Origin: an uncultured Chryseobacterium sp.
GTDB lineage: Bacteria > Bacteroidota > Bacteroidia > Palsa-965
Length of the DNA: 46,693 nucleotides
Direction: 5' to 3'
Assembly: GCA_964394965.1 (NCBI GenBank)
Contig: CAYMZV010000002.1
Span: forward strand, 1-46,693
Shown here piece after piece: positions 1-28,258 of the stretch. The position numbers and the translations under genes were made by a program. The first letter of the stretch is position 1; the number at the start of each line of letters is the position of its first letter. The notes under the pieces were generated by a model that was not told the DNA's origin, ran no database searches, and was given only the letters and a program-made list of their open reading frames with translations.

Positions 1-1427
1 CCTGTTCCCGTTGCCGTAACAACAAAACTCACTGAATCACCAACACAAACCACGTGATTGGTAGGTTGCGTTGTGATGTTGGGAGCAATTGCGCCACAGC
101 CCGGAGGCATGATTGCAAGAATGGCTGATGTGTTTAAAGCGCCTGTTGTTGTAAGTGCCCTGCCGTTAAGCGTAACATTGGTCAGCAAATCCATTGCTCC
201 GTTATTGCAAATAATTGTTCCGTTGAAAATGGAGTTGTCATTTATGCTGACGGCACCGTTGACTTCCCAAAAAACATTTTTCGCTTGTGTGCCATTGATC
301 AGATTCACTTTTGAAGAAACACTTGTAGAAAGTGCACCGTTGATATGAATCAGGAACACAGCGTTTGCATCACCTTCAGCATTGAGATAAAGCGTATCGG
401 TAAATGTGCAAGCCGAATTCATGATGTAAGTGTGCGGTGTAAGAACCAAGTTGTGTCCGAATTGTGCGGGATACAACAGTTCTATATCATAAGGAATTGC
501 ATTGAGATAATTGTAGACGGTGGTCAAATCGGTTGCACAAATGGCTGTTGAACCATCGGGAATCGGATGAATCATTCCGGTAACGAACAAAGGATTGTAA
601 CCTGTTGTCAACCCATTGTTGCTGCCCACATCACCCGTGACATGTGTAACTCCAACATTTGTAACCGGGCCGATGGAAGAAAATAAGGTGTAGCAAGCGG
701 TCGATAAAAGATTCGGTGCAAGCGGTCCGGTCAACAAAAGACTTCCGCAACCGATCGGTGTATATGCCAACACGCCGTCAACAGTGACAGCGCCCGCAGT
801 GGAGAGTGCACGTCCTTCGAGTGTGTCGCCTGTGCTCATGTTGATTGCTGCGTTGTTTGCAATGACAGTTCCGCGCATTGTTGTTCCGGTAGCCATGCTT
901 ACCAAACCTTCAATTTTCCAAAATACATTACATGCCAACGCTCCGTTGATCAACGTGACTTTTGAATTTGCATTTGCTGAAAAAGGCGCTTGGATCTGAA
1001 AAATGAAAACCGCATTCGGATTGTTCTGTCCATCAAGAATGAGATTCAGGTTCAGTGTGGTTGCACTTGAAATGGAATACACCCCTGCATTGAGAATTTG
1101 TCCGTTGCCCAATAAATTTGCCGGAAAGAAAGTCGGGACAGTGGCATTGAGTTGGTTGTACGCGATCAACAAATCGGCAGCACATTGCGCACTTGCCCCA
1201 TCATTGTCGTGCATCACACCATCCACATTTCCGAAGCCCGTGCTCGATCCGCTGTTCGTTCCCACATTTCCCGTAAGGTGCGAAAGTCCTGTATTGCTCA
1301 CTGCACCGACAGTTGTAAACAGAACAAAATCAGCCGCAGTTCCGAGTGGCGGAGCCTGCGCGAAAGCCAATGTTGAGAGCGATAACAGTGCAGCGGTTGT
1401 TATCTTATGTAATAATTTGTTTTTCAT
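1..1427 (-). CDS. Ice-binding-like protein with two tandem DUF3494 domains followed by Ig-like repeats; partial, 3' end runs off the left edge
   Basis: Absent from the ORF track because it leaves the window. Hand translation of the reverse strand from ATG 1427 stays open to base 1. It reads MKNKLLHKITTAALLSLSTLAFAQAPPLGTAADFVLFTTVGAVSNTGLSHLTGNVGTNSGSSTGF...NVFWKIEG...GRALSTAGAVTV. A second unit follows: TACYTLFSSIGPVTNVGVTHVTGDVGSNNGLTTGY...NVFWEVNG...GRALTTTGALN. Then comes APNITTQPTNHVVCVGDSVSFVVTATGTG. A signal peptide is present. Both units align with the paralog at 2397..3509. Confidence 0.8.
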   Translation of the reverse strand, partial: MKNKLLHKITTAALLSLSTLAFAQAPPLGTAADFVLFTTVGAVSNTGLSHLTGNVGTNSGSSTGFGNVDGVMHDNDGASAQCAADLLIAYNQLNATVPTFFPANLLGNGQILNAGVYSISSATTLNLNLILDGQNNPNAVFIFQIQAPFSANANSKVTLINGALACNVFWKIEGLVSMATGTTMRGTVIANNAAINMSTGDTLEGRALSTAGAVTVDGVLAYTPIGCGSLLLTGPLAPNLLSTACYTLFSSIGPVTNVGVTHVTGDVGSNNGLTTGYNPLFVTGMIHPIPDGSTAICATDLTTVYNYLNAIPYDIELLYPAQFGHNLVLTPHTYIMNSACTFTDTLYLNAEGDANAVFLIHINGALSTSVSSKVNLINGTQAKNVFWEVNGAVSINDNSIFNGTIICNNGAMDLLTNVTLNGRALTTTGALNTSAILAIMPPGCGAIAPNITTQPTNHVVCVGDSVSFVVTATGT

Positions 1428-1464
1428 TTTGCTTGATGTTAGTGTGATTTTATTTTTCACTGCT

Positions 1465-1533
1465 CAAAGGTGAGCCGCCGGTCATCCCAAACTGTTACAG
1501 AACTCTTGCGATTAGTTACATCATTCACACATT
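1465..1533 (-). promoter_or_regulatory. Composite stress-regulon promoter element, copy a (drives the gene at 1..1427)
   Basis: In gene orientation: AATGTGTGAATGATGTAACTAATCGCAAGAGTTCTGTAACA, 20 nt, CACCTTTG. The box lies 38 nt from the ATG at 1427. Confidence 0.65.
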
Positions 1534-1621
1534 AGGCTTTCAATGAAAAAGCATTTCCATACCCAAATGAAAACGCTTTTGTCCGATCCGGAATATCGGG
1601 TTGTCTTACAAACCAACCTCC

Positions 1622-2396: not shown

Positions 2397-3509
2397 TCAT
2401 TTTTGAAAAATTCCATTTCCTGATTTTTCTTCAACAGTCCCGTCCTTGTAATAAATAAATCTCAAGCCTTCATAATCCGCACTCACTTCCTGACCCAACG
2501 CATTTGTCACTCGCACCATTTGCCGAACAACAATCGTATTGTCAATGACAATGATGTCGAATGTGTGGGATTGTCCATTATAATCGGTTTGTTTCAATCG
2601 GTAATAATTCACTGTTTTGTCAAAACCATAATCTGCGAAGGAATAATCATTCGGTTGCGAACTCGTTCCCGCTCCGTTGACTCTTGCGACCTGCGTGAAA
2701 TTTTCCCCGTCGGTTGCTCTTTCCAAGGTGAAATAATCATTATTCGTTTCGGTGGCAGTGGACCACGACAATAGATTGTAAGCATGTTTATCCGATCCAT
2801 TGAAAAACAATAATTCAATCGGTAAAACAATTTGGGAAGGTGAACAGGATAACGAGGCTGTCATTGTAGAAATGTTTATGGCCCCTCCAATGGAAAGTCC
2901 CCTTCCTTCAAGTGTTGAGCCATCCAATAAGTTGAGTGCGCCATTGGCAATTACCGTTCCCTGGAAAACAGAACTGTCGCCCAAATCGAATTCCCCATTC
3001 ACTTGCCAATACACATTGCACATGGAAGCGGAATTGATCAGGATCACATTCGACAATGAGTTTGCAGCCAAAGCGCCGTTGATCTTGAAAATGAATAACG
3101 CATTGGGATCACCTTGGGCATCCAATGTCAAATCGCCATTCAATGATGAAGCTCCCATGCAATAAACATTGGGAGAAAGGATCTGGTTGTTTCCCAATAC
3201 AACTCCTATAACGGTATCACAAGTGATTGCATTCATAAAACTGTAAGCGGAATCCGCATCCGATGCCGCTTGCAATGAAACGGAATCCGTCAAATGGGTT
3301 TGTCCGTTTATTGTTCCGGGAGGAAATCCGGTGAATGCCCCTGCATTTGTACCGATATCACCTGTGGCAACTGTCGCTCCAACATTCGTGAATGCACCGA
3401 CTGCCGTAAACAGGACAAAAGACGATGCCGCCCCCAAATTGGGCGACTGTCCGAAATTCATTTTGGGGAAGAGAACAAATACGAGAATAAATAGCGACTT
3501 ACCTTTCAC
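2397..3509 (-). CDS. Ice-binding-like protein (single DUF3494 domain) with a C-terminal beta-sandwich domain
   Basis: LGAASSFVLFTAVGAFTNVGATVATGDIGTNAGAFTGFPPGTINGQTH, NVYWQVNG and GRGLSIGGAINI match the DUF3494 ice-binding fold signature. The C-terminus carries LPIELLFFNG...NNDYFTLERATDGENF...YYRLKQTDYNGQ. The track start ATG 3548 is only 3 nt from the -7-like box (3551..3558), so it lies upstream of the expected TSS. GTG 3509 gives a signal peptide MKGKSLFILVFVLFPKMNFGQ. The start is inferred. Confidence 0.75.
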   Translation of the reverse strand: MKGKSLFILVFVLFPKMNFGQSPNLGAASSFVLFTAVGAFTNVGATVATGDIGTNAGAFTGFPPGTINGQTHLTDSVSLQAASDADSAYSFMNAITCDTVIGVVLGNNQILSPNVYCMGASSLNGDLTLDAQGDPNALFIFKINGALAANSLSNVILINSASMCNVYWQVNGEFDLGDSSVFQGTVIANGALNLLDGSTLEGRGLSIGGAINISTMTASLSCSPSQIVLPIELLFFNGSDKHAYNLLSWSTATETNNDYFTLERATDGENFTQVARVNGAGTSSQPNDYSFADYGFDKTVNYYRLKQTDYNGQSHTFDIIVIDNTIVVRQMVRVTNALGQEVSADYEGLRFIYYKDGTVEEKSGNGIFQK

Positions 3510-3550
3510 TCCCGTACAATTTATATTGCGAATGAATATCCACAACACAA

Positions 3551-3618
3551 CAAAGGTGAGTCCTTAAGAATGGCAATTGTTACAGAACTCTTTCAATTAC
3601 TTACATCATTCACACATT
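3551..3618 (-). promoter_or_regulatory. Composite stress-regulon promoter element, copy b (drives 2397..3509 plus the SDR)
   Basis: AATGTGTGAATGATGTAAGTAATTGAAAGAGTTCTGTAACA, 19 nt, CACCTTTG. Confidence 0.65.
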
Positions 3619-3690
3619 CGGCGTTCAATGAAAAAGCATTTCCATTCTGGATGAGCATGCTTTTGAAATGATGCCAATGAAGCCATTATT

Positions 3691-4083
3691 TCAGCCAGGA
3701 ACTGTTTGTATTTCCTTTTCCGGTGTTATACATTTCTTCATCATTTCCAACAATGTATCCAATTCAAAAGGTTTGGTGATGTAATCGGCAGCACCCGACT
3801 TCAAAGCATTCGCCTTATCATTCTTTTCGGAAAGTGAACTGCTGAAAATAAAAGGTATGGAGGAAATCTTGGCTGTGTGCAAGAGCAACTGCAACACTTC
3901 ATGACCATCCATCTCACGCATTATTATATCACATATTATCAGGTCAGGCATAAATTCAGTGGCGAGTTCAATTCCCTTTTTCCCGTTATCGGTTGCAAGA
4001 ATCCTATAGCCTTCCATTTCAAGGTACTCGGTCAGGTTATCGAGAATTTCAGGATTGTCCTCGATCAATAAAATTGTTTCCAT
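3691..4083 (-). CDS. Stand-alone response-regulator receiver (CheY-like)
   Basis: ILLIEDNPE, DLIICDIIMREMDG (acceptor Asp) and ADYITKPF are present. There is no output domain. It is the last gene of the long operon that starts at 10573. Confidence 0.85.
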   Translation of the reverse strand: METILLIEDNPEILDNLTEYLEMEGYRILATDNGKKGIELATEFMPDLIICDIIMREMDGHEVLQLLLHTAKISSIPFIFSSSLSEKNDKANALKSGAADYITKPFELDTLLEMMKKCITPEKEIQTVPG

Positions 4084-4130
4084 TATTCATCCTTCCTTTT
4101 AAAGCAGTAATGAAAATATACCCTGAACGA

Positions 4131-5618
4131 TTATTTAACATGCACCATTGCCTTTTCGTCAATATCAATTCCCAATCCCTTTGCAACCGCCATTCCCAAC
4201 TGAACATCAACACGGAAAAAATGGCACAATTGCCTATTGATGATTTCATTTTTTTTCTCACCGCCAATCCCACCCATCGCATTCACAATATTGCTTGCCA
4301 GATTTTTCCTGTCTTGTGCATTCATCGCATCCCGATACAACGCTCCGGGCTGTGAGTAATGATCGTTGTCATTTTCATTGCGGTCAAACCAATCGGCTGT
4401 CACCGATTCCAATTGCATGGGTGATTCCCTATAATTCTCGTCCACAACAATATCATCAAAACTGTTCGGACGGTAATTCACAGTCGATTCCCCATTATCA
4501 CCCACCTGCATGAATCCGTCACGCTGGTAATTTGCAACTGCGTATGGGCACCTGTTCACAGGAATGTTTTCATAATTCACACCCAATCGATAACGGTGTG
4601 CATCGGGATAGGAAAGCAAACGTCCCTGCAACATCTTATCCGGTGAATAACCGATGCCATCAACAACTGCTGCCGGAGCGAAAGCGGATTGCTCGACATC
4701 ACGGAAATAATTCTTCGGGATTTCGTTCAGCTCCATGGTGCCAACAGCGATCAATGGAAAATCCTTGTGAGACCAAACCTTGGTAACGTCGAACGGATTC
4801 CACTTGAAATTTTTCGCCTGTTCATCCGTCATCACTTGAATTGACAGTGTCCATTTGGGGAAATCTTTTCTTTCAATCGCTTCCACCATGTCGCGTTGCG
4901 AATGATCGAGATCAACACTTTTCATTTCAATCGCTTCCTTGTCGGTGAAATTTTTCACTCCTTGCAATGTCTTGAAATGGAATTTCATCCATACCCGTTC
5001 ATTGTTTTTATTGTACATGGAAAAAGTGTGACTGCCGAAACCATTCATGTAACGGTAGGAAAACGGGGTTCCGCGGTCACTCATCAAAATCATTACCTGA
5101 TGAAGGCTTTCCGGATTCAAACTGAAAAAATCCCAAACAGCTGTTGGATTCTTACAATTCGTTTTGGGATCACGCTTTTGTGTGTGAATGAAATGGGAGA
5201 ATTTTTTTGCATCCTTGACAAAAAACACGGGTGTATTGTTCCCGACCAAATCCCAATTGCCATCTTCGGTATAGAATTTAAGCGCAAATCCGCGGGGATC
5301 CCTCTCGGAATCGGCGCTTCCCTTTTCGCCCGCCACCAAAGAGAAACGCGCAAACATTCTTGTCTGTTTGCCGATCTCGGAAAACAATTTCGCCTTTGTG
5401 TATTGCGTAATGTCATGCGTCACCGTAAAAGTTCCGAATGCTCCCGTTCCTTTTGCATGAACAACACGTTCAGGAATTCGTTCGCGGTTGAAATGTGCCA
5501 AGTCTTCGTGCAGAAAATAATCCTGCAATAAAATCGGTCCACGATTGCCAACCGTCATTGAGTTTTCGAATTCGCAATAGGGTCTGCCGCTTGCTGTGGT
5601 TAATTTTCTCTTTTTCAT
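4131..5618 (-). CDS. Monofunctional heme catalase (small-subunit type, 495 aa)
   Basis: FNRERIPERVVHAKGTGAFG, RDPRGFALKFYT, VGNNTPVFF and RLLSYPDAHRYRLG are canonical catalase signatures. Confidence 0.95.
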   Translation of the reverse strand: MKKRKLTTASGRPYCEFENSMTVGNRGPILLQDYFLHEDLAHFNRERIPERVVHAKGTGAFGTFTVTHDITQYTKAKLFSEIGKQTRMFARFSLVAGEKGSADSERDPRGFALKFYTEDGNWDLVGNNTPVFFVKDAKKFSHFIHTQKRDPKTNCKNPTAVWDFFSLNPESLHQVMILMSDRGTPFSYRYMNGFGSHTFSMYNKNNERVWMKFHFKTLQGVKNFTDKEAIEMKSVDLDHSQRDMVEAIERKDFPKWTLSIQVMTDEQAKNFKWNPFDVTKVWSHKDFPLIAVGTMELNEIPKNYFRDVEQSAFAPAAVVDGIGYSPDKMLQGRLLSYPDAHRYRLGVNYENIPVNRCPYAVANYQRDGFMQVGDNGESTVNYRPNSFDDIVVDENYRESPMQLESVTADWFDRNENDNDHYSQPGALYRDAMNAQDRKNLASNIVNAMGGIGGEKKNEIINRQLCHFFRVDVQLGMAVAKGLGIDIDEKAMVHVK

Positions 5619-5671
5619 TTTCGGTTTGTCTTATTGGCAAAAACTCATTGCGGATTATCCTTCACCTGTTT

Positions 5672-6022
5672 TCATTCACTTTTATCTTCATCCAAATCGT
5701 TGTGATCATCCCCACCCAAACTGTAACCGTTATTTTCCTCGTCTTCGCTTCCAACATTTTCCTGCTGATCATCCAATTCAGAACCCGGAATATCCAAATC
5801 ACTTCCTGATAGGTCGTCTTTGAAATCCTTCTCGTTGCCTTTCCCTTCCGTATCGGTTTCGTTTGGTGTTTTTGTTTTGGAAATATCTTCCGGGTTCATA
5901 TCCTGTTCCTCCTTGGCATGATTGAAAATATCTTCACCTACAGGATATAACGGATAACCTTTTTTGTTTTCATTGGCACCGTTTTTCCTTGGCAAATCCG
6001 TATTGTCTTTTTCGTTTTTCAT
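5672..6022 (-). CDS. Small highly acidic protein of unknown function
   Basis: 116-aa ORF rich in D/E/N (GSELDDQQENVGSEDEENNGYSLGGDDHNDLDEDKSE). Its start overlaps the upstream stop (ATGA at 6019..6022), so it is translationally coupled. Confidence 0.55.
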   Translation of the reverse strand: MKNEKDNTDLPRKNGANENKKGYPLYPVGEDIFNHAKEEQDMNPEDISKTKTPNETDTEGKGNEKDFKDDLSGSDLDIPGSELDDQQENVGSEDEENNGYSLGGDDHNDLDEDKSE

Positions 6023-6417
6023 TTTGCATTGTAATAATGGTTTGTAAAATGCTCCCTGACAAAAGCGTGTTGCTGATGATCCGTCATTTTATCGGCCTGT
6101 TGGGTGACGATTCTTATTTTTGCGAAATGATGATCGGCTTTCAGGAGATTGGCCAATTCTGCTTTTGCATCGGTCGGTCCAAAAAGAAGCACCTCTTCGT
6201 AATTCTTGATGACTTCACCCAGTTTTTTATAATATTCTGATTGCTGATGCTGTTCCTTGTTGTGCATCAGGTTTTCGCCCTTGCCCAAGCTGTGCTCCTT
6301 TTCTCGGTGCGTGAATTTTGATTCAAGGCTTTTTGTTTCGATGGGATCTATTGTATATTCCATCAAATGAGCGGTCGAATGATCCATCCAAATGCCCAGG
6401 TATTTTGCTGTTGTCAT
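6019..6417 (-). CDS. Hypothetical protein; weak resemblance to host-attachment / bacterial eRF1-like (baeRF) small proteins
   Basis: 132 aa. YEEVLLFGPTDAKAELANLLKAD...IVTQQADKMTDHQ recalls the layout of the Host_attach family. This is recognition by eye only. Confidence 0.5.
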   Translation of the reverse strand: MTTAKYLGIWMDHSTAHLMEYTIDPIETKSLESKFTHREKEHSLGKGENLMHNKEQHQQSEYYKKLGEVIKNYEEVLLFGPTDAKAELANLLKADHHFAKIRIVTQQADKMTDHQQHAFVREHFTNHYYNAK

Positions 6418-6465
6418 TTTGTTTTATTTATTGTGAAACTGTTAAAGAAAAAGTGTCCGCCGATT

Positions 6466-6990
6466 TTATTTAAGCAACGAAGGATTGAGCATTTCAACTA
6501 CAATCACTCCGCCAACAAGCAGGGTGACGCAGACCAGGAATCCGACCGCCATATACTTGTATCTTTTCGCATCTTTCTTCGCTTCCATCATCTTGAACAG
6601 GTTGAACAATGAAAAATTTATTTTCCTGAATTTTGTTTCTGTCTTGACAACATAGTCGGAAGCGCCGTGCTTGAATGATTTCAGTGCAATGTCAATGTTG
6701 TCTTCACTGGTCAGCATGATGACATTGGTATCATGACTTTCCTTTTTGATCAGATCCAAAACCTTGATGCCATTCATCGCATCCGGATTTATACTATTGA
6801 GATTATAGTCAAGGATAACCACTTGGGGCTTGTCTTCCGCATATTTCTTCATGCAACTCTCTCCCGTTTCAAACGAATGGATCTTGATGGGCATTTTTGC
6901 AAAAGCCGTTTCGATATCGGCCTTCAGCGCAAGTTGAAATACCTTATTGTCTTCAACAATGAAAATATTTATCTGGTTCTTCGAGTTCAT
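6466..6990 (-). CDS. Receiver domain protein with a C-terminal transmembrane anchor
   Basis: IFIVEDNKVF, VVILDYNLNS (acceptor Asp), MLTSEDN and GASDYVVK form a REC domain. A hydrophobic helix YMAVGFLVCVTLLVGGVIVVEML follows at the C-terminus. Confidence 0.8.
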   Translation of the reverse strand: MNSKNQINIFIVEDNKVFQLALKADIETAFAKMPIKIHSFETGESCMKKYAEDKPQVVILDYNLNSINPDAMNGIKVLDLIKKESHDTNVIMLTSEDNIDIALKSFKHGASDYVVKTETKFRKINFSLFNLFKMMEAKKDAKRYKYMAVGFLVCVTLLVGGVIVVEMLNPSLLK

Positions 6991-7032
6991 GATTTTTGTT
7001 TTTTTGTTTTACATTCCAATATGGAATGCATT

Positions 7033-7503
7033 TCATTCGAGTAAATTCATTGTATTGATGTATTGCTCCACTTTACTGAAGGCCTGTTCATCCTTTCGCA
7101 AATAGGTGCAACCATATTCCGCAAGCGCCTTTACAAAAACATTCAATTCGGTTTGGGCGCTCAGCAAAATGATATTCGTATTGGCTTTCATCGACTTTAT
7201 TTTTTTTATGATCGACAATCCGGTAGCGGCATCACCTAGGTTCGTATTCAACAAATGATCCATGATGATGACAATCGGATTCCGGTGCAATTCCATCAAG
7301 CAGGTTTCCCCAACGGAAAATATCTTTATTTCAACCCGCGGAAAACGAATGCTCAAAAAACCTTTCAAGGACTTTGCATATACTTCATTGTCTTCCACAA
7401 TAAATATTATTTTTTTAGGTGACGCGATATTCTTGAAAAATCGGGTGAGCATATTCACTTTCCTGACAGGGTTTTGAAACTTAGGCACAGTTGAGTTTTT
7501 CAT
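7033..7503 (-). CDS. Stand-alone receiver domain protein
   Basis: KIIFIVEDNEVYAKSL, VIIMDHLL and ILLSAQTE are present. The start is uncertain: ATG 7503 overlaps the Hpt gene by 23 nt, while Met 7452 is the alternative. Confidence 0.7.
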   Translation of the reverse strand: MKNSTVPKFQNPVRKVNMLTRFFKNIASPKKIIFIVEDNEVYAKSLKGFLSIRFPRVEIKIFSVGETCLMELHRNPIVIIMDHLLNTNLGDAATGLSIIKKIKSMKANTNIILLSAQTELNVFVKALAEYGCTYLRKDEQAFSKVEQYINTMNLLE

Positions 7504-7849
7504 TTTCTATTTCCCGGACAGCCTGCTTGCATATCAAAACAAGTTGCCCGTTCAGTTCCTTTATCTTTTCAATGTTTACCCCTGCGGTTCCAAGATTTTC
7601 CATTTCCTGCAAAATGGGAGTGAGCACGGAAATACCCATAATGGAAACGGATGACCGCATGGTGTGGGAAAATTTCTTGATGATCAAAAAATCCGTCCTT
7701 TCTATCGCATCCTTGATGGATTTGAGTTCTTCCTGGATCTGTTCGAGGAAAGCATCCATGATTTCCCTGATCAACAGTTTTTTTCCGCCCATCATCTCGT
7801 TGAGATAATTCAGGTCACACACATTTTGAATATTATTTTCGATTGGCAT
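7481..7849 (-). CDS. Hpt (histidine phosphotransfer) domain protein
   Basis: 122-aa helical protein with an Hpt-type motif FSHTMRSSVSIMGI, lying between a hybrid kinase and receivers. Confidence 0.75.
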   Translation of the reverse strand: MPIENNIQNVCDLNYLNEMMGGKKLLIREIMDAFLEQIQEELKSIKDAIERTDFLIIKKFSHTMRSSVSIMGISVLTPILQEMENLGTAGVNIEKIKELNGQLVLICKQAVREIENEKLNCA

Positions 7850-7853
7850 TTTA

Positions 7854-9335
7854 TCAGCAGTTAAGGGTTAAATCATATATTTTTTCAAAAAGCAGATTTG
7901 CATTGATGGGTTTTGAAATGTAATCGTTCATTCCCAAGCTCAGGCAACGTTCCTTTTCACCCGCCATGGCATGGGCGGTCATTGCGATGATCGGAATATT
8001 GTTTTTCATTTCATGGCGGATAATGGTCGCGGCTTCGTATCCATTCATCACCGGCATTTCCATATCCATGAGGATGATGTCAAAATTATTTTCGCGGATT
8101 TTTTCGATTCCCACACTTCCATTTTCCGCCACTTGCAATTTCATGCTGTTCTCCGAGAACAAACTTAAAATCAGTTTCACATTCAACTGGTTGTCTTCAA
8201 CCAACAGGATATTCAACCGGCTGAGTTTTTCGAGATTGTATTTTTCTCCCGTGACCTCTGCAATCGGCAAAATTTCAGCTGATCTTTTGTAGGGAATGCA
8301 AAATGAAAATGTCGAGCCTACCTTGATTTCACTTTTAACCGACAACGTTCCACCTTGAAGTTCGACCAATTGTTTTGCAATGCTCAACCCCAATCCGGTG
8401 CCGCCGTATTTCCTTGTTGTATGGGATTCCGCTTGACGAAACCGTTCGAAGATATGTTCGAGTTTATCCGGGGTTATTCCAATTCCGGTATCCTGCACTG
8501 AAAATTCCAACAGCGTAATTCCATCTCCACGAAGATGTTGAGACTGGCACGAATTATCCTTTAAGACTTTTACGCGAACATTTATTTTTCCCTTTTGGGT
8601 GAACTTGATCGCATTTCCTGCGAGGTTGAGAATAATCTGCGTAAGACGTGTGGGATCGCCAAGCAGACGATCGGGAACATTATCCTCACACTTGAATACG
8701 AATTCAAGGTTTTTTTCTTTTGCCTTTTCCCCCAACATGATATTAAGGGACGCAAAAATTTCCTTGACACTGAAAGTATGTTCTTCAAAAGCCATCATTC
8801 CGGCTTCAATTTTTGAAATGTCAAGTATGTCGTTGATGATTGTCAGCAGGTTTTCTCCAGCCGTTTTAATTGTCTTGACATATTCCCTTTCTTTTTCTTC
8901 CAGATTTCCCTTCGACAGAATATCCGAAAAGCCAATGATGGCATTCATCGGTGTACGGATTTCATGGCTCATGTTGGCAAGAAACGCCTCTTTCAATTTG
9001 GTCGACTCTTCCGCTTTTTCTTTCGCTTCACTGTAATCTTCGAGAATATTGAGAACGGCACGCTGTGTATTTTCCAAATGGATTTTTTCTTCGCTGTAAT
9101 CATCCAGGATATTCAGCAGGGCGCGTTGACTGTCTTCGGAATGGTATTTCTCTTCGGAATAATCATCCAGAATATTCAGCAATGCCTTTTCGGTATCCTG
9201 CAAATCGATTTTCTCTTCGGAAATGGTTTCCTCAGTGTTTTCCGGATTTCTTTTGGATTTCCAGGCTTCGATGTCGATTCCGCTGTTCGGTGATGAAGAC
9301 ATTTGTATTTTATTTTTTCGGGTTGATGAAATCAT
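7854..9335 (-). CDS. Soluble hybrid sensor histidine kinase (coiled coil, HisKA, HATPase, REC)
   Basis: The N-terminus repeats ALLNILDDYSEEK three times. FLANMSHEIRTPMNAIIGF (H-box), GGTGLGLSIAKQLVELQGG (G2), and REC ILLVEDNQLN...DIILMDMEMPVMNG are present. I saw no TM segment or sensor domain. Confidence 0.9.
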   Translation of the reverse strand: MISSTRKNKIQMSSSPNSGIDIEAWKSKRNPENTEETISEEKIDLQDTEKALLNILDDYSEEKYHSEDSQRALLNILDDYSEEKIHLENTQRAVLNILEDYSEAKEKAEESTKLKEAFLANMSHEIRTPMNAIIGFSDILSKGNLEEKEREYVKTIKTAGENLLTIINDILDISKIEAGMMAFEEHTFSVKEIFASLNIMLGEKAKEKNLEFVFKCEDNVPDRLLGDPTRLTQIILNLAGNAIKFTQKGKINVRVKVLKDNSCQSQHLRGDGITLLEFSVQDTGIGITPDKLEHIFERFRQAESHTTRKYGGTGLGLSIAKQLVELQGGTLSVKSEIKVGSTFSFCIPYKRSAEILPIAEVTGEKYNLEKLSRLNILLVEDNQLNVKLILSLFSENSMKLQVAENGSVGIEKIRENNFDIILMDMEMPVMNGYEAATIIRHEMKNNIPIIAMTAHAMAGEKERCLSLGMNDYISKPINANLLFEKIYDLTLNC

Positions 9336-9346
9336 TTCAGCAAAAA

Positions 9347-10573
9347 CTAACTCTTGCCTTTCAATTCTTCAATCTCCTTTTTCAATTCTATCATTTTCAA
9401 CTCTCTTCCCACTGTCAGTTTCCTGAATCTTTCCAACTCCTCCATTCGCATCAATTCCTTTTCACGTCCTGCAATTTCCCTTTCGGCCAATTGCTTTTGT
9501 GCAGTGATATCCCTGGCTACAATTACAACGCCCAATACATTTCCGCGATCATCCTTGTAAACCGAACCGTTGAACAATACATCGGTGAACTTTCCATTCT
9601 TGTGGCGCAACGTAAGTGGGGAATCGATAACGAATCCCTTGGCAAAAACTTCCTGATAAACATCACGTGCCTTTTGCGGTTCGGTGAAATAATCGAAGAA
9701 ATCGGAACCGATCAGTTTTTCGCGTTCTATTCCTGTAATTTTCACTGTCGCATCATTCATGTCGGTGATTTTCCCTTCGGTGCTGATGGTTACCAATGGA
9801 TCCAGACTCGCTTCAATCAAACTCAATGAATATTTGGAAAGCAATTTTTGCGCTGTCACATCACGTGCAACAATTACAACGCCCAATACATTTCCACGAT
9901 CATCCTTGTAAACCGATCCGTTGAACAGAACATCGGTCAGCTTGCCATTTTTATGGCGGAGCGTAAGCGGTGAATCGGCAACGGAACCTTTGGCAAAAAC
10001 TTCCTGATACACTTCACGGGCCTTTTGCGGCTCAGTGAAATAATCGAAGAAATCGGAACCGATCAGTTTTTCGCGTTCTATTCCTGTAATTTTCACTGTC
10101 GCATCATTCATGTCGGTGATTTTCCCTTCGGTGCTGATGGTTACCAATGGATCCAGACTCGCTTCAATCAAACTCAATGAATATTTGGAAAGCAATTTTT
10201 GCGCTGTCACATCACGTGCAACAATTACAACGCCCAATACATTTCCACGATCATCCTTGTAAACCGATCCGTTGAACAGAACATCGGTCAGCTTGCCATT
10301 TTTATGGCGGAGCGTAAGCGGTGAATCGGCAACGGAACCTTTTGCAAAAACTTCCTGATACACTTCGCGCGCTTTTTGCGGTTCGGTGAAATAATCGAAA
10401 AAGTCGGTACCCGTAAGTTTCTCGCGTGTGACTCCCGTAATGTTTGCCGTAGCTTCATTCATATCCGTGATCTTGCCTTCGGTGCTGATGGTAACCAATG
10501 GATCCAAACTCGCTTCGATCAAACTTCTTGCATATTGGGATTCCTGTGTTTTTGCCGTTTTGAATGTTTCCAT
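9347..10573 (-). CDS. Triple-PAS protein with a C-terminal coiled coil and no output domain
   Basis: Three 117-aa units of the form SLIEASLDPLVTISTEGKITDMN...FFDYFTEPQKAREVYQEVFAKG...LRHKNGKLTDVLFNGSVYKDDRGNVLGVVIVARDVT, followed by REIAGREKELMRMEELERFRKLTVGRELKMIELKKEIEELK. Confidence 0.85.
   Translation of the reverse strand: METFKTAKTQESQYARSLIEASLDPLVTISTEGKITDMNEATANITGVTREKLTGTDFFDYFTEPQKAREVYQEVFAKGSVADSPLTLRHKNGKLTDVLFNGSVYKDDRGNVLGVVIVARDVTAQKLLSKYSLSLIEASLDPLVTISTEGKITDMNDATVKITGIEREKLIGSDFFDYFTEPQKAREVYQEVFAKGSVADSPLTLRHKNGKLTDVLFNGSVYKDDRGNVLGVVIVARDVTAQKLLSKYSLSLIEASLDPLVTISTEGKITDMNDATVKITGIEREKLIGSDFFDYFTEPQKARDVYQEVFAKGFVIDSPLTLRHKNGKFTDVLFNGSVYKDDRGNVLGVVIVARDITAQKQLAEREIAGREKELMRMEELERFRKLTVGRELKMIELKKEIEELKGKS
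9479..10531. repeat. Three in-frame tandem repeats of 351 bp (PAS units)
   Basis: About 9683..9990 and 10034..10341 are identical by eye (about 308 bp at a 351-bp offset). The third copy is more diverged. Confidence 0.85.
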
Positions 10574-10636
10574 TGTATTTATTTCATATCACTGTTAAAA
10601 GCCGGTTTCACCTTCGATTGTATTGGCGGGAAAAGA

Positions 10637-10705
10637 CAAATGTGAGTCGTTTCGCTACTGCAAGTATTACACAACTATGGAAATGAGTTGCATAATTCAC
10701 ACATT
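10637..10705 (-). promoter_or_regulatory. Composite stress-regulon promoter element, copy c (drives the operon 10573 down to 3691)
   Basis: AATGTGTGAATTATGCAACTCATTTCCATAGTTGTGTAATA, 20 nt, CACATTTG. Confidence 0.65.
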
Positions 10706-10747
10706 GGGATTCGGTGCTGCATTTCGGCGCTAATTGGATTGCATTTA

Positions 10748-10781
10748 AAAGGAGCGTTGTAATTTAATACAACGCTCCTTT
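10748..10781 (-). terminator. Intrinsic terminator-like hairpin after the DUF1003 gene
   Basis: Perfect 14-bp stem AAAGGAGCGTTGTA / TACAACGCTCCTTT with a 6-nt loop. A T/A-rich tail follows on the minus strand. It sits between the stop at 10854 and promoter copy c. Confidence 0.5.
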
Positions 10782-10853: not shown

Positions 10854-11423
10854 TCATCCGGCAGAAGACTTGTCCAGCTTACGGCTTATTTCCTTCAGCA
10901 GGATGAATTGTTTTTCCTGTGTTTCAAAAAGCGTCTCGATCTGCTCTTCCAATAACAAATCCATTTTTTGGTGCATGCTGCGGATTTGCATTTCCGCTTT
11001 CAGGTTTATCATGTAATCATTTTCACTTCTCATCCTGTCTTTTTCCTCTTTCCGGTTTTGGCTCATCATGATGATCGGAGCCTGTAAAGCCGCAATGCAG
11101 GAAAGCACAAGATTCATGAGGATGAAAGGATAAGGATCGAATTCATAATGGGTGAGAACAATGACATTGAAAAGAATCCAGATTGTCAATATGACTCCGA
11201 ACATGATGATGAATTTCCAACTTCCCCCGAATCGCGCCACCTTATCGGAAATCTTTTGTCCCTGCGTGAGTGTTTCCATGGGAGGATGCAAAAGGTTGTG
11301 AATGATGAGTTCTTCCGCCTTGATGGTATCATTGACAATCTGATGCAACTTGTTGAGATGCCGGTGTTCGTTGGATATCAACTGGTCAATTTCATTGTTA
11401 CTCATCGGGGAAGTTGTTGTCAT
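10854..11423 (-). CDS. DUF1003 family membrane protein
   Basis: FGGSWKFIIMFGVILTIWILFNVI...FDPYPFILMNLVLSCIAALQAPIIMMSQNR is the typical DUF1003 core. The start overlaps the upstream stop (11420..11423). Confidence 0.8.
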   Translation of the reverse strand: MTTTSPMSNNEIDQLISNEHRHLNKLHQIVNDTIKAEELIIHNLLHPPMETLTQGQKISDKVARFGGSWKFIIMFGVILTIWILFNVIVLTHYEFDPYPFILMNLVLSCIAALQAPIIMMSQNRKEEKDRMRSENDYMINLKAEMQIRSMHQKMDLLLEEQIETLFETQEKQFILLKEISRKLDKSSAG

Positions 11424-12031
11424 GACGCATTTTTATTTTTCCCTTTTCGTTCCAACTCACCCATGAATACAGTGAGCTCTTTTATGAAATCATCCTGTTT
11501 CAGTGTGGATTGTTTTATATAGCCTATCATTTTCTTCAACTCATCGGGAGAATTCATTGCTTTCTCGAGTAAACTCGAAATACCCAAAATGTGGGCAATG
11601 GATTGTCGAACCTTATGCGAAGTCATGAACATCATTTCCTCCATGCCCTCAATATATTTTTTCAGATAGTCGTCCGTTTGCCGGAGTTCATCATAAGTGA
11701 TATTCAATTCAATTGTCTGCTTTTCATTTTCCTCATTTTGAAATACAAGTTCCTTGTTGGCAACAATCAATTCCGCTTCGCGATTTTGCTTCTCCCGATT
11801 TTGAAAAACAAGTTCCTTATTGGCGATGATCAACTCGGCTTCGCGTTTTCCTTTTTCTTCATTGCTGGAATGAAGCTCCTTGTTTGCCGAATCCAACTCC
11901 GCCACGACTTTTTCATTCACATCGTTTTGAATGGCCAACTCAATCTTGGTAGAAATCAACTCATCTTCACACTTCTCACCCGTTTCAATTGCTGGAACGG
12001 ATTCCTCGTGGATCAAGCCTTCTGTCTTCAT
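11420..12031 (-). CDS. Coiled-coil (21-aa repeat) protein ending in a DHp-like (HisKA-like) domain, with no ATPase domain
   Basis: Repeats of the form REAELIIANKELVFQNREKQN are followed by MFMTSHKVRQSIAHILGISSLLEKA (H-box-like). The track start 12094 lies inside the promoter motif. Met 12031 lies 5 nt past the -7-like box, which suggests a leaderless mRNA. It is a paralog of 26937..27734. Confidence 0.65.
   Translation of the reverse strand: MKTEGLIHEESVPAIETGEKCEDELISTKIELAIQNDVNEKVVAELDSANKELHSSNEEKGKREAELIIANKELVFQNREKQNREAELIVANKELVFQNEENEKQTIELNITYDELRQTDDYLKKYIEGMEEMMFMTSHKVRQSIAHILGISSLLEKAMNSPDELKKMIGYIKQSTLKQDDFIKELTVFMGELERKGKNKNAS
11681..11962. repeat. Degenerate 63-bp (21-aa) coding repeats
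   Basis: AELxxANKELxFQNxExxxR periodicity within the CDS 11420..12031. Confidence 0.7.
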
Positions 12032-12035
12032 GCTC

Positions 12036-12104
12036 CAAATTTGCGAGCCTTTCATCATGCAAGTGTTACACAACTTTGGGAATAAGTTATACAATTCACA
12101 CCTC
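12036..12104 (-). promoter_or_regulatory. Composite stress-regulon promoter element, copy d
   Basis: GAGGTGTGAATTGTATAACTTATTCCCAAAGTTGTGTAACA, 20 nt, CAAATTTG. Confidence 0.6.
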
Positions 12105-12119
12105 CAATATCAAAACAAG

Positions 12120-12195: not shown

Positions 12196-12450
12196 TTAAC
12201 TATTCATTGCATGATGTTTGGCATCTTCTTTCTGACACTCATTGGCAAGACATTGCTGTCCGTGAGCCTTGATTGTACTTTCAGAAGCTTTTTCGTGATT
12301 GCCCGCTTCATGGTGCTTCGCTGCATCCTGGTGATGTTGCGCTGCAGCTTCAAAATGGCTTGCTGCCTTTTTGTGGTTTTCAATCCCTTTTTTATTGTCT
12401 TCAGCGGTAACAGGAGATTGCTTTTTGATTGGTGTTGTCGTATTTGTCAT
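12196..12450 (-). CDS. Small histidine-rich helical protein (84 aa), function unknown
   Basis: AASHFEAAAQHHQDAAKHHEAGNHEKASESTIKAHG. It is monocistronic, with its own motif copy upstream and a hairpin downstream. Confidence 0.6.
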   Translation of the reverse strand: MTNTTTPIKKQSPVTAEDNKKGIENHKKAASHFEAAAQHHQDAAKHHEAGNHEKASESTIKAHGQQCLANECQKEDAKHHAMNS

Positions 12451-12491
12451 TTTGTTTATTTTTTTATTGTGAATGAATTTTCACAACGTAA

Positions 12492-12560
12492 CAAAGGTCT
12501 GTAATGACAAATATTCAAGTGTTATAGAACTTTGGGAAAGAGTTGTATAATTCACATGTC
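12492..12560 (-). promoter_or_regulatory. Composite stress-regulon promoter element, copy e
   Basis: GACATGTGAATTATACAACTCTTTCCCAAAGTTCTATAACA, 20 nt, GACCTTTG. Confidence 0.65.
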
Positions 12561-12601
12561 AGAACGGGGCTTGAAAAATGAAAGGGAAAAAGCAGAAATG
12601 A

Positions 12602-13501: not shown

Positions 13502-13534
13502 GGGTTGTTCCGAATTAAGTGAATGGTCATTTCG

Positions 13535-13603
13535 CAAAACTGCACATCTCAGAGCACTCCCATGTTACATAACTTTTGAAAAACATTGTATCATTCACAC
13601 CTT
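13535..13603 (-). promoter_or_regulatory. Composite stress-regulon promoter element, copy f (divergent partner of copy g)
   Basis: AAGGTGTGAATGATACAATGTTTTTCAAAAGTTATGTAACA, 20 nt, CAGTTTTG. Confidence 0.6.
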
Positions 13604-13613
13604 CCCGATTGGA

Positions 13614-13682
13614 ACAATGTGAATTATACAACTCTTTGCAGGAATTGTGTAACACCGCACTATTGTGGGTTACGCAACTTTA
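13614..13682 (+). promoter_or_regulatory. Composite stress-regulon promoter element, copy g (the only plus-strand copy)
   Basis: ACAATGTGAATTATACAACTCTTTGCAGGAATTGTGTAACA, 20 nt, CAACTTTA. The box lies 29 nt from the ATG at 13711. Confidence 0.6.
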
Positions 13683-13710
13683 GTATTCCATAAAATCAAA
13701 AACATAAAAC

Positions 13711-14175
13711 ATGAAAACCGAAAAAATAAAAATTTTCCTCGTTGATGACGATGCACTTTTTCTAAAATCACTGGAAATCGATTTTCTCCAACATGCAGAT
13801 TTTACCATTGAGACTTTTGCAACCGGTGAGCTTTGCATGAAGAGCCTGTCACACTCCCCCGATGTAATCATTCTCGATTACCATCTTGATGGCATTGTGA
13901 AAAATGCGATGAATGGCATTGAAGCGTTGGACAGGATAAAAAAATTCAATCCCGATATTCCGGTGGTGATGTTATCTTCCCAGTACAAGGTCGAGCTACA
14001 TGAAAACTGCATGCAACACCAGGCTTTTGTTTATGCGATAAAGGATGAAACCACATTCATGCAGCTGCAAAAAATCATTTCATCCATTTTCCCGAACAAA
14101 AAAAACGGGAAAGAAATCGAACTGGTGTATGGCGAGGATGCCATTCCCTTTCAACTGTCGATCATCCGGTGCTGA
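13711..14175 (+). CDS. Stand-alone receiver domain protein (paralog of 27827..28258)
   Basis: KIFLVDDDALFLKSLEIDF, VIILDYHLDG (acceptor Asp) and VVMLSSQ are present. The two paralogs are co-linear for about the first 125 residues by eye. The C-terminal tail diverges after an A8 run near 14088. Confidence 0.8.
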   Translation: MKTEKIKIFLVDDDALFLKSLEIDFLQHADFTIETFATGELCMKSLSHSPDVIILDYHLDGIVKNAMNGIEALDRIKKFNPDIPVVMLSSQYKVELHENCMQHQAFVYAIKDETTFMQLQKIISSIFPNKKNGKEIELVYGEDAIPFQLSIIRC

Positions 14176-17928: not shown

Positions 17929-17988
17929 ATTGGATGGGGGTTAGTTTTATTTGATTCCATGCAGCTAAGTCGATAGAAGCCTTGTTCA

Positions 17989-18057
17989 TAAAGTTTCACA
18001 CTTCCATTGATGGGAATGTTATACAACTTTGGAAATAAGTTACATGATTCACATGTC
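17989..18057 (-). promoter_or_regulatory. Composite stress-regulon promoter element, copy h (drives 17928 down to 14178)
   Basis: GACATGTGAATCATGTAACTTATTTCCAAAGTTGTATAACA, 20 nt, AAACTTTA. Confidence 0.6.
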
Positions 18058-18160
18058 CAAAGTGGGTTTGCCTGGAATGGAATTGGCAATTGCCATGGAC
18101 AAGATTTGAAATCCCGCCATTCAACCATTTCACGCATTCATGGCAACGAACAATTATTTA

Positions 18161-22904: not shown

Positions 22905-22987
22905 GGGACGTTTTTATTTATTTAATGATTCGGCCTTGAATGATATTTTCATGACCCGATTTTTTCAGTGAATGAATTTTCACAGGC

Positions 22988-23056
22988 CAAAGGTGAATCG
23001 AACCGTTCGCGTGCCTGTTACACAACTTTGTCAATATGTTACAACATTCACACATT
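22988..23056 (-). promoter_or_regulatory. Composite stress-regulon promoter element, copy i (drives 22904 down to 18161)
   Basis: AATGTGTGAATGTTGTAACATATTGACAAAGTTGTGTAACA, 20 nt, CACCTTTG. Confidence 0.65.
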
Positions 23057-23084
23057 GCATGCTGTTGCATCAAAACAAAATCAA

Positions 23085-26217: not shown

Positions 26218-26254
26218 GTTGTTTGGGTTTTAAACTTTACTGACTCTTTCTTGG

Positions 26255-26323
26255 CAAAGATGACCTACTGAAGCCTGGAATGTGTTACATGATTTATTGA
26301 TTCTGTTACATCATTCACACATT
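26255..26323 (-). promoter_or_regulatory. Composite stress-regulon promoter element, copy j
   Basis: AATGTGTGAATGATGTAACAGAATCAATAAATCATGTAACA, 20 nt, CATCTTTG. Confidence 0.6.
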
Positions 26324-26749
26324 CTATTTTTGCGAAATCAATTTGCCCGATTGGATTGTTTTATGGTTGCTGATGATGGCATAGAAATAAATACCTGAAG
26401 GAAGGCTTCCTGTTTCTATCGGTGTTGTCGTGTTGAGCAAGGCAATGGCCATCAGCTCTTCGCCCAACAGGTTGTAAATTTTCAATTGCGAATTGGTATT
26501 CAGCAGACCCGCATCATTTATTCTGATGGAGACAATCGATTCGAATGGGTTCGGGTAAATTGTAGCGGCGACCCCATCGATGGCGATGTTTTCAATTGGA
26601 TTTGAAATCCCAACGTTGTTTATTGTCCTGTTGAACTGGAAAGGGGAAATATCCGATATGCTTTCGAGTGTTGGAGCCTGTGCAAAATCCAATCTCGGGA
26701 ACATGAAAAATGTCATTACGGCAAAAGTCAATTTCAATTCCCTTTTCAT
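26324..26749 (-). CDS. Small secreted protein with a T9SS type-A C-terminal sorting domain
   Basis: Signal peptide, then ATIYPNPFESIVSIRIND...LKIYNLLGEELM...LPSGIYFYAIISNHKTIQSGKLISQK. Confidence 0.75.
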   Translation of the reverse strand: MKRELKLTFAVMTFFMFPRLDFAQAPTLESISDISPFQFNRTINNVGISNPIENIAIDGVAATIYPNPFESIVSIRINDAGLLNTNSQLKIYNLLGEELMAIALLNTTTPIETGSLPSGIYFYAIISNHKTIQSGKLISQK

Positions 26750-26788
26750 CGTGTTTCAATTCGATTGCGAATTCGTTTCCGCAACAGC

Positions 26789-26857
26789 CAAAGGTGGCCA
26801 GACTTGAAAAGGGAATTGTTACACCATTCCGGGAATCAGTTGCATGATTCACACTTG
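26789..26857 (-). promoter_or_regulatory. Composite stress-regulon promoter element, copy k
   Basis: CAAGTGTGAATCATGCAACTGATTCCCGGAATGGTGTAACA, 20 nt, CACCTTTG. Confidence 0.6.
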
Positions 26858-26882
26858 TTGTTTTCGGCTTTTCCGTGAACAT

Positions 26883-27734: not shown

Positions 27735-27737
27735 ACT

Positions 27738-27806
27738 GTAAGTTTACTCACTTTAAACATTCAATTGATACATAATTCGTGAGATAACTTGCATAATTCA
27801 CACATT
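27738..27806 (-). promoter_or_regulatory. Composite stress-regulon promoter element, copy l (weak -7 box)
   Basis: AATGTGTGAATTATGCAAGTTATCTCACGAATTATGTATCA, 20 nt, AAACTTAC. Confidence 0.5.
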
Positions 27807-27826
27807 GGGAATTCCAGTGGGCACTT

Positions 27827-28258
27827 TTACATCCTATCCATATACCAACTCAATTCCTTTTCCATTCTTTTATAGCGGAAAATGGTGGTGACGATTTTTT
27901 GCAGCCGCATGAAAGCGGTTTCGCTTTTCACGACATAATCAAATGCACGATGATGCATGCAATTGATCGCAACATCGATTTTATCCTGCGAGGATAACAT
28001 GACAACCGGAATATCGGGGTTGAATGCCTTTATCTTATCCAATGTTTCCATTCCATTCATCGCATTCTTATCCATTCCATCGAGATGATAATCCAGAATG
28101 ATGACATCGGGATTGTGCGACAGATCCTTCATGCAAAGTTCGCCGGTTGCAAAAGTCTCAATTATAAAATCCGCATGTTCGAGAAATTCAATCTCCAATG
28201 ATTTTAAAAACACAGCATCATCGTCCACCAAAAAAAGCCTTATTTTCTCGTTTTTCAT
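27827..28258 (-). CDS. Stand-alone receiver domain protein
   Basis: RLFLVDDDAVFLKSLEIEF, VIILDYHLDG, VVMLSSQDK and FDYVVK are present. The start overlaps the kinase stop. Confidence 0.85.
   Translation of the reverse strand: MKNEKIRLFLVDDDAVFLKSLEIEFLEHADFIIETFATGELCMKDLSHNPDVIILDYHLDGMDKNAMNGMETLDKIKAFNPDIPVVMLSSQDKIDVAINCMHHRAFDYVVKSETAFMRLQKIVTTIFRYKRMEKELSWYMDRM

Follow-up and report, generated by a model that had tools for sequence, protein, structure and literature searches.

A two-polypeptide sensor-kinase pair heading a candidate stress phosphorelay in an uncultured member of the Bacteroidota

Multi-step phosphorelays such as ArcB, TorS, BarA, LuxQ-LuxU-LuxO and Sln1-Ypd1-Ssk1 operate through His-Asp-His-Asp chemistry. 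In HptB-HsbR-HsbA of Pseudomonas aeruginosa and RsbK-RsbY-sigmaB of Bacillus cereus, a hybrid kinase, with or without a histidine phosphotransfer (Hpt) protein, acts on a receiver-PP2C (REC-PP2C) protein that leads into a partner switch. Sensor domains can also be polypeptides of their own beside a sensor-less kinase, as for H-NOX/HnoK and for the Caulobacter single-domain PAS protein MopJ, a stand-alone sensor acting on kinases in trans (PMC4432633, PMC4620464). Here we describe a locus of nine genes (g1-g9) that resembles each of these systems in part, located on contig CAYMZV010000002.1 (NCBI GenBank assembly GCA_964394965.1; positions 1 to 46,693, forward strand) of an uncultured Chryseobacterium sp. 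(GTDB lineage Bacteria; Bacteroidota; Bacteroidia; Palsa-965), a bacterium of soil or cold habitats. The window analysed is the whole 46.7-kb contig.

Judged by its motifs, the locus probably shares the chemistry of the canonical relays, but it has no membrane sensor, no DNA-binding terminal regulator and several output-less receivers. With HptB-HsbR-HsbA and RsbK-RsbY it has in common an orphan hybrid kinase, a stand-alone Hpt, a receiver-PP2C terminal acceptor in at least 10 related loci and an association with general-stress genes, catalase among them. Unlike those systems, it has no PP2C gene on its contig, its sensor is a separate protein, and there are extra single-domain receivers (one membrane-anchored); the window also yielded no STAS protein, anti-sigma kinase or alternative sigma factor. 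The sensor domain on its own polypeptide beside a sensor-less kinase recalls H-NOX/HnoK and MopJ, and one related locus (L088) has an HNOB gene between sensor and kinase. In contrast to H-NOX/HnoK and MopJ, however, the pair described here has dedicated terminal modules, namely a nearly invariant C-terminal helix on the sensor and 21-residue repeats at the N-terminus of the kinase. In several phyla the helix is found on PAS as well as HAMP sensors, and the repeats on kinases of both the HisKA and the HisKA_2/HWE type. Trans-acting sensor domains are already known in general; the two-polypeptide helix/repeat design is conserved, unusual and apparently undescribed, and a literature search for the motif strings of the modules returned no paper.

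The best overall explanation, in our view a probable one, is that the locus is a two-module, promoter-motif-driven unit in which g1 controls g2 in trans. Directly observed are the genes present, their intact catalytic residues, the gene order in relatives, the places where the motif occurs, and the fact that the split and both terminal modules are conserved; co-transcription, docking, the direction of phosphotransfer, PP2C as output and any tie between the relay and the motif-reading factor are inferred.

Separate sensor and kinase with paired terminal modules

The first gene, g1, encodes three PAS repeats of 117 aa that are 86-93% identical to one another, followed by a C-terminal helix (…LTVGRELKMIELKKEI…), and g2, a hybrid histidine kinase, begins with repeats (QRALLNILDDYSEEK…) where a sensor normally sits (Table 1). 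This separation of sensor and transmitter onto two polypeptides, claimed in an earlier note made from the sequence alone, is conserved in more than 85 homologue clusters. Among the matches listed, none of the first 86 g2 homologue clusters (70-84% identical) has a sensor domain; they measure 435-624 aa, either 435-501 aa or, with a fused Hpt, about 600-624 aa; the homologues in this identity range all derive from metagenome-assembled genomes (MAGs) of uncultured Bacteroidota/Bacteroidia from permafrost mire, groundwater and soil. A PAS-only gene lies directly upstream of the kinase in related loci L001-L003, L006-L010 and L013. PAS-only orthologues of g1 are 333 to 710 aa long, as would fit a repeat number that varies, and those of L001, L006 and L013 are 93-94% identical to g1. 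Across about 20 loci the conserved core comprises the PAS-only protein, the hybrid kinase, Hpt and receivers of the g4 and g5 types in varying numbers; a sister group has PAS fused to the kinase in place of the PAS-only protein, and these fused relatives contain neither terminal module.

Two other readings of g1 and g2 were considered and rejected. A frameshift or assembly artefact at the g1/g2 junction is incompatible with the different reading frames, the 11-nt gap and the recurrence of the split in the homologue clusters. Simple fission of a PAS-kinase fusion does not account for the pair, as fused relatives join PAS to DHp by a different linker (RFENELIEAK…) without either module. As it contains no Cys anywhere, g1 is also not a LOV protein.

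Helix-ending sensors followed by repeat-starting kinases form a wider pattern, in which proteins consisting only of a sensor and ending in the same tail precede kinases that start with 21-residue QRAvLNILED repeats. We retrieved 80 metagenome loci by exact peptide words of the sensor tail alone; the kinase side played no part in retrieval, and its repeats are therefore an independent observation. The tail helix lies 10-25 residues ahead of the stop codon in 80/80 of these loci, a figure that overstates tail conservation given the retrieval by exact words. Where at least 300 nt were available downstream, the next gene was a repeat-bearing kinase in 64 of 74 loci (58 by a strict pattern and 6 by eye), about 10 tail-bearing sensors had no such kinase downstream, and no sensor-kinase fusion was present among the 74. 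Every examined locus with both genes (13/13) also showed a helix-ending sensor and then a repeat-starting kinase. These 13 include three loci picked solely by a tail match, among them one Deltaproteobacteria MAG and one HAMP-only sensor; the sensor-less LNILDD-repeat kinase is the next gene in two of the three and the next but one in the third. All loci together yielded 79 sensor/kinase pairs with 2-9 repeats each, 66 with a HisKA-type and 8 with a HisKA_2/HWE-type H box, and the window pair has the same form, a tail-ending sensor directly before a kinase with at least two 21-residue LNILED repeats.

Searching with a chimeric query that joined the two modules recovered short proteins with one module each, including single-PAS and HAMP-only proteins ending in the helix (from MAGs labelled Nitrospirae, Deltaproteobacteria and Sediminibacterium) as well as HisKA and HisKA_2/HWE kinases starting with the same repeats. 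No single protein with both modules was found in the 393 matches to this query, whose coverage never exceeded 68%, or in the roughly 95 loci. The simplest reading of this distribution would be a non-covalent coiled-coil link between sensor and kinase. We propose that the multi-PAS protein g1 may sense a cytoplasmic cue and control the sensor-less g2 in trans, its C-terminal helix docking on the stretch of 21-residue LNILDD repeats just ahead of the kinase's dimerisation helix.

The locus L088 (5001-8850, on a separate MAG contig) consists of a HAMP-only helix-ending sensor, an H-NOX (HNOB) protein, a repeat-bearing kinase, REC and REC-SpoIIE, and has the same logic with different sensors. Two proteins of the window (26937-27734 and 11420-12094, both on the minus strand) consist of many repeats of another kind, about 22 residues long (ELxIANKELxFQNxEKxKRAAEL), followed by a HisKA-like helix and no ATPase domain; the same repeats make up the N-terminal part of the second relay operon's kinase (28255-30606) and the linker in the relatives' REC-SpoIIE.

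Table 1 Features of the nine-gene locus and of related elements in the window (positions on the contig)
Feature	Position	Strand	Characteristics
g1, triple-PAS protein, soluble, without output domain	9347..10573	-	408 aa; three PAS (Pfam/NCBIfam)
351-bp tandem repeat coding the g1 PAS repeats	9519..10525	-	2.9 copies, 91% matches
g1 C-terminal helix, residues 373-405, ELMRMEELERFRKLTVGRELKMIELKKEIEELK	9359..9457	-	proposed docking module
g2, sensor-less hybrid histidine kinase HisKA-HATPase_c-REC	7854..9335	-	493 aa; H124, D424
Three 21-residue repeats xxQRALLNILDDYSEEKxxxE, g2 N-terminus, in the sensor's place	9009..9197	-	proposed partner of the g1 helix
g3, stand-alone Hpt	7481..7849	-	Pfam Hpt 28.1 bits versus cut-off 24.6; H62 in SHTMRSS
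g4, single-domain receiver	7033..7503	-	REC only; D82
g5, receiver with C-terminal membrane anchor	6466..6990	-	REC; D61; hydrophobic segment residues 144-173
g6, 132-aa protein, large unnamed family	6019..6417	-	invariant loop H-N-K-E-Q (52-56), no GGQ
g7, acidic protein	5672..6022	-	116 aa, pI 4.1, 35 D+E; no family match
g8, monofunctional haem catalase, no signal peptide	4131..5618	-	Catalase PF00199 621.6 bits, Catalase-rel PF06628 61.8 bits
g9, CheY-like single-domain receiver	3691..4083	-	D52; lineage differs from g4, g5
Promoter motif copy c	10635..10707	-	ends ~60 nt upstream of g1 ATG
Intrinsic terminator hairpin, upstream DUF1003 gene	10748..10781	-	-26.2 kcal/mol, z = -6.05, UUUU after
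Promoter motif copies in the window	1463-1535, 3548-3620, 10635-10707, 12034-12106, 12490-12562, 13533-13605, 13612-13684(+), 17987-18059, 22986-23058, 26253-26325, 26787-26859, 27736-27808, 31203-31275		position-weight scan
Second phosphorelay operon	27827-31163	-	AraC-type HTH, PAS-HisKA-HATPase-REC-Hpt hybrid kinase, single-domain receiver; own motif

Phosphorelay proteins and their output

Pfam and NCBIfam agreed with the domain content that the earlier note had assigned to g1-g5, g8 and g9, and matched no family to g6 and g7. The kinase g2, called publicly as a 482-aa protein from M12, matches HisKA (81 bits), HATPase_c (105 bits) and Response_reg (96.5 bits) and has the motifs SH124EIRTP, NLAGNAIKF, DTGIGI and GGTGLGL together with D424, T453 and K475; its best NCBIfam similarities are to BarA, LuxQ and TorS, all under the family cut-offs. 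Stand-alone here, Hpt forms part of the kinase polypeptide in some relatives (P0017, P0028, P0066, L013, L017). Receiver residues are complete in g4 (E37, D38, D82, S115, K137), whose orthologues in relatives are 45-67% identical, and in g5 (E13, D14, D61, T94, K116). The operon had been called soluble, which fits eight of its proteins; a hydropathy scan placed a single hydrophobic segment, at the C-terminus, in g5 only.

All His-Asp-His-Asp residues are intact (H124 and D424 in g2, H62 in g3, D82 in g4, D61 in g5, D52 in g9), and kinase, Hpt and receivers each have the features expected of a multi-step phosphorelay. On paper, the relay therefore appears complete, its chemistry being suggested by the intact motifs. 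The phosphoryl group would pass from H124 to D424 within g2, then to H62 of g3, and from there to the receivers g4 and tail-anchored g5. Two further single-domain receivers, closely similar to each other, are encoded at 13711-14175 (+) and 27827-28258 (-), one of them behind its own motif copy; therefore the contig encodes at least five output-less receivers.

A DNA-binding output domain is missing from every gene of the operon, as the earlier note had remarked, and so is an enzymatic one; a candidate output emerges from comparison with relatives. After the same Hpt/receiver set, a REC-SpoIIE (PP2C) gene is found in at least 10 related loci (L001-L003, L008, L009, L011-L013, L015, and L005 in a paralogous system), with a receiver that is g5's nearest paralogue at 51-66% identity. 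In most relatives, phosphoryl groups would also reach the REC-PP2C phosphatase, a likely enzymatic output whose gene is not on this contig. The PP2C or, in its absence, the single-domain receivers may act by protein-protein and protein-phosphatase steps instead of DNA binding. The earlier note had described the output as partner-switching-like or chemotaxis-like; a partner-switching-like output is plausible because the relatives' relay usually ends in a receiver-PP2C (SpoIIE) phosphatase, whereas the chemotaxis comparison found no counterpart, with no CheA, CheW or MCP-type receptor in the window. Likewise, the precomputed Pfam lists for the neighbours of L001-L006 held no STAS antagonist, anti-sigma Ser kinase or sigma factor.

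Operon layout, stress cassette and promoter motif

The nine co-oriented minus-strand open reading frames (ORFs) span 3691-10573 and all lie where the earlier note had placed them, tightly spaced behind motif copy c. A gap of 11 nt separates g1 from g2 and one of 4 nt separates g2 from g3; g3 and g4 overlap by 23 nt (or lie 28 nt apart if g4 begins at its second Met, M18); gaps of 42 nt and 48 nt precede g5 and g6, g6 overlaps g7 by 4 nt, and g8 and g9 begin after gaps of 53 nt and 47 nt. Copy c reads GTGTGAAT-n-ATGcAAC, N10, AGTTgTGTAAt, N19-21, cTCACaTTTG, the last element being a Bacteroidota -7-like box. Within 3621-10634 the position-weight scan found nothing scoring at least 6, compared with at least 22 for the 13 window copies, and folding detected no terminator in the intergenic gaps; the next copy stands directly past g9 (3548-3620), where it drives an ice-binding gene. 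Co-transcription of g1-g9 as a single motif-driven unit is the best inference because no gap exceeds 53 nt, the interior holds neither a motif copy nor a terminator and a strong terminator lies just upstream. That terminator, belonging to the upstream DUF1003 gene, would insulate the operon from upstream transcription. A hairpin in the g4/g5 gap (7012-7030, minus strand; 9-bp stem, -9.8 kcal/mol, z = -3.7, without a U tract) may be a processing or attenuation site within the operon. A sigma-70 consensus scan was uninformative, as one would expect of Bacteroidota promoters, and an Rfam scan of the window gave no RNA family and hence no rRNA to use in taxonomy.

The operon is best read as a five-gene relay (g1-g5) and a four-gene stress cassette (g6-g9), the cassette probably standing where relatives have REC-SpoIIE, because g6-g9 lie outside the kinase operon in other genomes. 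There, g6, g7, catalase and g9 are found in motif-marked stress islands. Homologues of g6 (more than 2800 proteins, about 800 clusters at 50% identity) adjoin CsbD, Band_7, BrkB, NDH-2 or catalase. The PF00199 match of the catalase g8 extends over positions 1-382 of the 383 in the profile, and the catalases encoded in L001, L005 and L013 share 83-85% identity with g8. The start of g7 overlaps the stop of g6 (ATGA), and a 68% homologue directly follows the g6 homologue in L092; tblastn without filters found no other in the remaining loci examined. That g7 is a very acidic protein had been noted before, in line with its isoelectric point (pI).

For g6, a baeRF-like or host-attachment-like identity had been suggested, for which support comes only from the predicted fold. 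At E <= 10, Pfam returned only RMP1 and mSLOG noise, with no baeRF, eRF1 or Host_attach; 36 diverse family members gave just one match to baeRF_family5 (E = 0.023) and one to eRF1_2 (E = 0.045), NCBIfam pelota reached E = 0.018, far under its cut-off, and a profile search of the PDB with the family yielded no match. An AlphaFold2 (AF2) model built from 26 family members (pLDDT 74, pTM 0.65, with loop residues 38-56 at low confidence) was closest in Foldseek to eRF1 (M domain), Pelota (central domain), aRF1 and Balon, with 23 matches at E <= 0.001, E-values of 1.7e-5 to 7e-4 and query-normalised TM-scores of 0.47 to 0.63. The catalytic GGQ loop is absent, and an invariant H52-N-K-E-Q56 stands in its place. 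Burroughs and Aravind (2019) described three baeRF-1 families that keep the core domain only and proposed roles in translational shutdown for them (PMC6514570). Like these families and the hibernation factor Balon (PMC10901736), g6 is predicted to have the central RNase-H-like domain and lies among stress genes; it differs from them in lacking a significant profile match and in having HNKEQ instead of GGQ. An 84-aa His-/Ala-rich protein is encoded behind a motif copy at 12196-12450 (-), and a 55% homologue of it directly precedes the g6 homologue in L091.

Orthologues of the receiver g9 (E8, D9, D52, S81 to S83, K104) with 58-72% identity occur in L011, L091 and L092, where they are close to stress genes and not part of the kinase operon. 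The gene stands alone behind its own motif in L011, follows a His-rich protein, g6 and NDH-2 in L091, and follows a bestrophin-like gene and a 157-aa protein in L092; receivers of this type thus travel with cargo genes and not with Hpt. The L011 orthologue (13612-14022) has Glu for the phospho-acceptor Asp (LIISEIMM) and may be a pseudo-receiver or a phosphomimic. In the two-module unit proposed here, g6 (ribosome-factor-like), g7 and catalase would be co-expressed protective stress cargo on the same transcript, and g9 would be a receiver encoded within the regulon, perhaps feeding back on the relay or draining phosphate from it.

The promoter motif is 73 bp long, with the consensus GTGTGAAT-n-ATGTAAC, N10, AGTT-n-TGTAAC, N19-21, cAcCTTTG, in which the two TGTAAC boxes are 21 bp apart. 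The Bacteroidota -7 element is TAnnTTTG, and the cAcCTTTG box resembles it. Scanning with a weight matrix made from window copies gave 13 copies at a score of at least 22, each co-oriented with its downstream gene, and no copy at that score in the shuffled window. Genes behind the window copies include ice-binding, PAS, BrkB, REC, phosphatidylserine (PS) decarboxylase, CsbD-like, HisKA-only and AraC genes. The motif is conserved in related MAG loci at up to 10 copies per 21 kb; in the window and 21 related loci, it occurs 22 times ahead of ice-binding genes, 8 times ahead of CsbD and 7 times ahead of the second relay operon, stands before the PAS/kinase operon in 8 genomes, and also precedes Usp, BON, YceI, BrkB and phosphatidylserine decarboxylase genes. 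The relay itself would therefore be a member of the motif regulon, since the motif precedes the PAS/kinase operon. Ice-binding (PF11999) genes flank the relay almost everywhere (about 20 loci), and genes for CsbD, YceI, catalase, Dps, BrkB, Usp, BON and an AI-2E transporter recur near it. We would accordingly place the operon, as one member, in a stress/freeze island (ice-binding, CsbD, Dps, BrkB) with common promoter architecture, the relay being under regulon control.

Two ice-binding (PF11999) genes of the window (3-1463 and 2397-3548, both minus strand, the second with a type IX secretion system (T9SS) sorting tail) each lie behind a motif copy, and a sequence of about 25 nt (ggaaatgctttttcattgaa…) precedes both copies. 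The AraC-type protein (30615-31163, about 182 aa, without a detected receiver domain) heads the second phosphorelay operon and is the contig's only DNA-binding candidate, outside the nine-gene operon; the AraC/kinase/receiver trio is conserved in L018 and L091. A very long repetitive, Ig_7/CHU_C-associated ORF of more than 1700 aa (41581-46692, plus strand), whose internal repeats measure about 1065 bp, is cut off by the contig end.

Alternative explanations and implications

The return of g6, g7, catalase and g9 outside the kinase operon elsewhere, in some cases behind a motif of their own (L011, L091, L092, L004-L006), could also mean that only g1-g5 form a signalling operon, that the remaining genes are separately transcribed neighbours and that no functional nine-gene unit exists. 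We judge this unlikely, given gaps of 42-53 nt, the lack of any detectable motif copy, Bacteroidota -7 box or terminator between g5 and g9, and a next motif copy only past g9. The position of catalase invites a different reading, already hinted at in the earlier note, in which it marks a peroxide or redox sensor whose PAS domains bind haem or flavin and whose three receivers compete for Hpt as outputs. Besides the catalase within the operon itself, this would fit L001 and L013, where a catalase gene follows the relay at a distance of 4-5 genes, and L005, where a g6-x-x-catalase block lies 15 nt ahead of another set of PAS kinase, REC and REC-SpoIIE. The PAS repeats, however, contain no Cys, no Trp and one His each, and no cofactor signature. 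Their nearest solved relatives are cofactor-free PAS domains of plant phytochrome A, with an E-value of only 1.6e-5, and the search brought up no closely related structure that contains a ligand, although haem or flavin binding is conceivable on sequence grounds. In other phyla, stand-alone sensors are headed by PAS domains of this type and have no catalase gene close by. The catalase varies in position and shares its island with ice-binding, CsbD, Dps and YceI genes, which points to a regulon output and not to a clue about the input. A redox sensor is thus improbable, and a cue linked to cold, freezing or general stress seems more likely than one specific to peroxide, because of the regulon content and the lack of a redox signature in the PAS domains.

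How the relay connects to the regulon admits a bolder version, in which its receivers or the PP2C control the factor that reads the GTGTGAAT/TGTAAC motif, with the AraC-type protein as candidate reader. Relay, motif and ice-binding/stress genes co-localise in about 20 genomes, the motif stands ahead of both relay operons and of the AraC gene, and AraC homologues recur in the islands of L004, L011, L018, L019, L021 and L091. The TGTAAC boxes, 21 bp apart, also abut the -33 position, a spacing typical of class II AraC/XylS-type activator sites. This version is nonetheless rather doubtful: it has no physical or genetic link behind it, no receiver domain was detected in the AraC protein, no sigma or anti-sigma genes were seen, and the relay could equally be a mere target of the regulon. 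Several observations also weigh against the two-module, motif-driven unit that we prefer. Pfam scans of the window ORFs found no SpoIIE (PP2C), STAS, anti-sigma or sigma protein, and no STAS gene was seen near the relatives' PP2C genes. The helix and the repeats could each be plain coiled-coil extensions without mutual contact; tail conservation is inflated by the way the loci were retrieved, and the tail-bearing sensors without a repeat-bearing kinase downstream do not fit. The g4/g5 hairpin could modulate read-through, and an internal promoter that escaped recognition ahead of g6 or catalase is conceivable.

Beyond this contig, we advance a broader proposal that is possible but falls somewhat short of probable: the g1 helix and g2 repeats may be the portable docking interface of an undescribed, obligately two-polypeptide class of sensor-kinase systems, made of output-less PAS/HAMP sensors and sensor-less HisKA/HWE kinases in several phyla, and in this Bacteroidota lineage such a kinase may head a phosphorelay (REC-PP2C in relatives) governing a general-stress/freeze regulon of the GTGTGAAT/TGTAAC promoter. 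To our knowledge, no general stress response has been characterised in Bacteroidota. A literature search on this response, on ice-binding-gene regulation and on the motif strings found nothing relevant, and the stress/ice-binding regulon around the relay is previously uncharacterised. The locus and about 20 related ones provide a concrete candidate circuit of a promoter motif, two phosphorelays, a PP2C response regulator and an AraC-type regulator, with ice-binding proteins, catalase, Dps and CsbD as its defined cargo. Within that cargo, g6 represents a large unnamed family with a predicted release-factor-like fold and is a stress-induced candidate for ribosome protection. With the helix/repeat pairing as a guide, orphan sensors and orphan kinases in metagenomes could be matched by a simple, testable rule, and the pairing might also serve as a modular connector in engineered two-component systems. 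If the proposal is true, it would offer a first handle on how Bacteroidota organise their general stress response.

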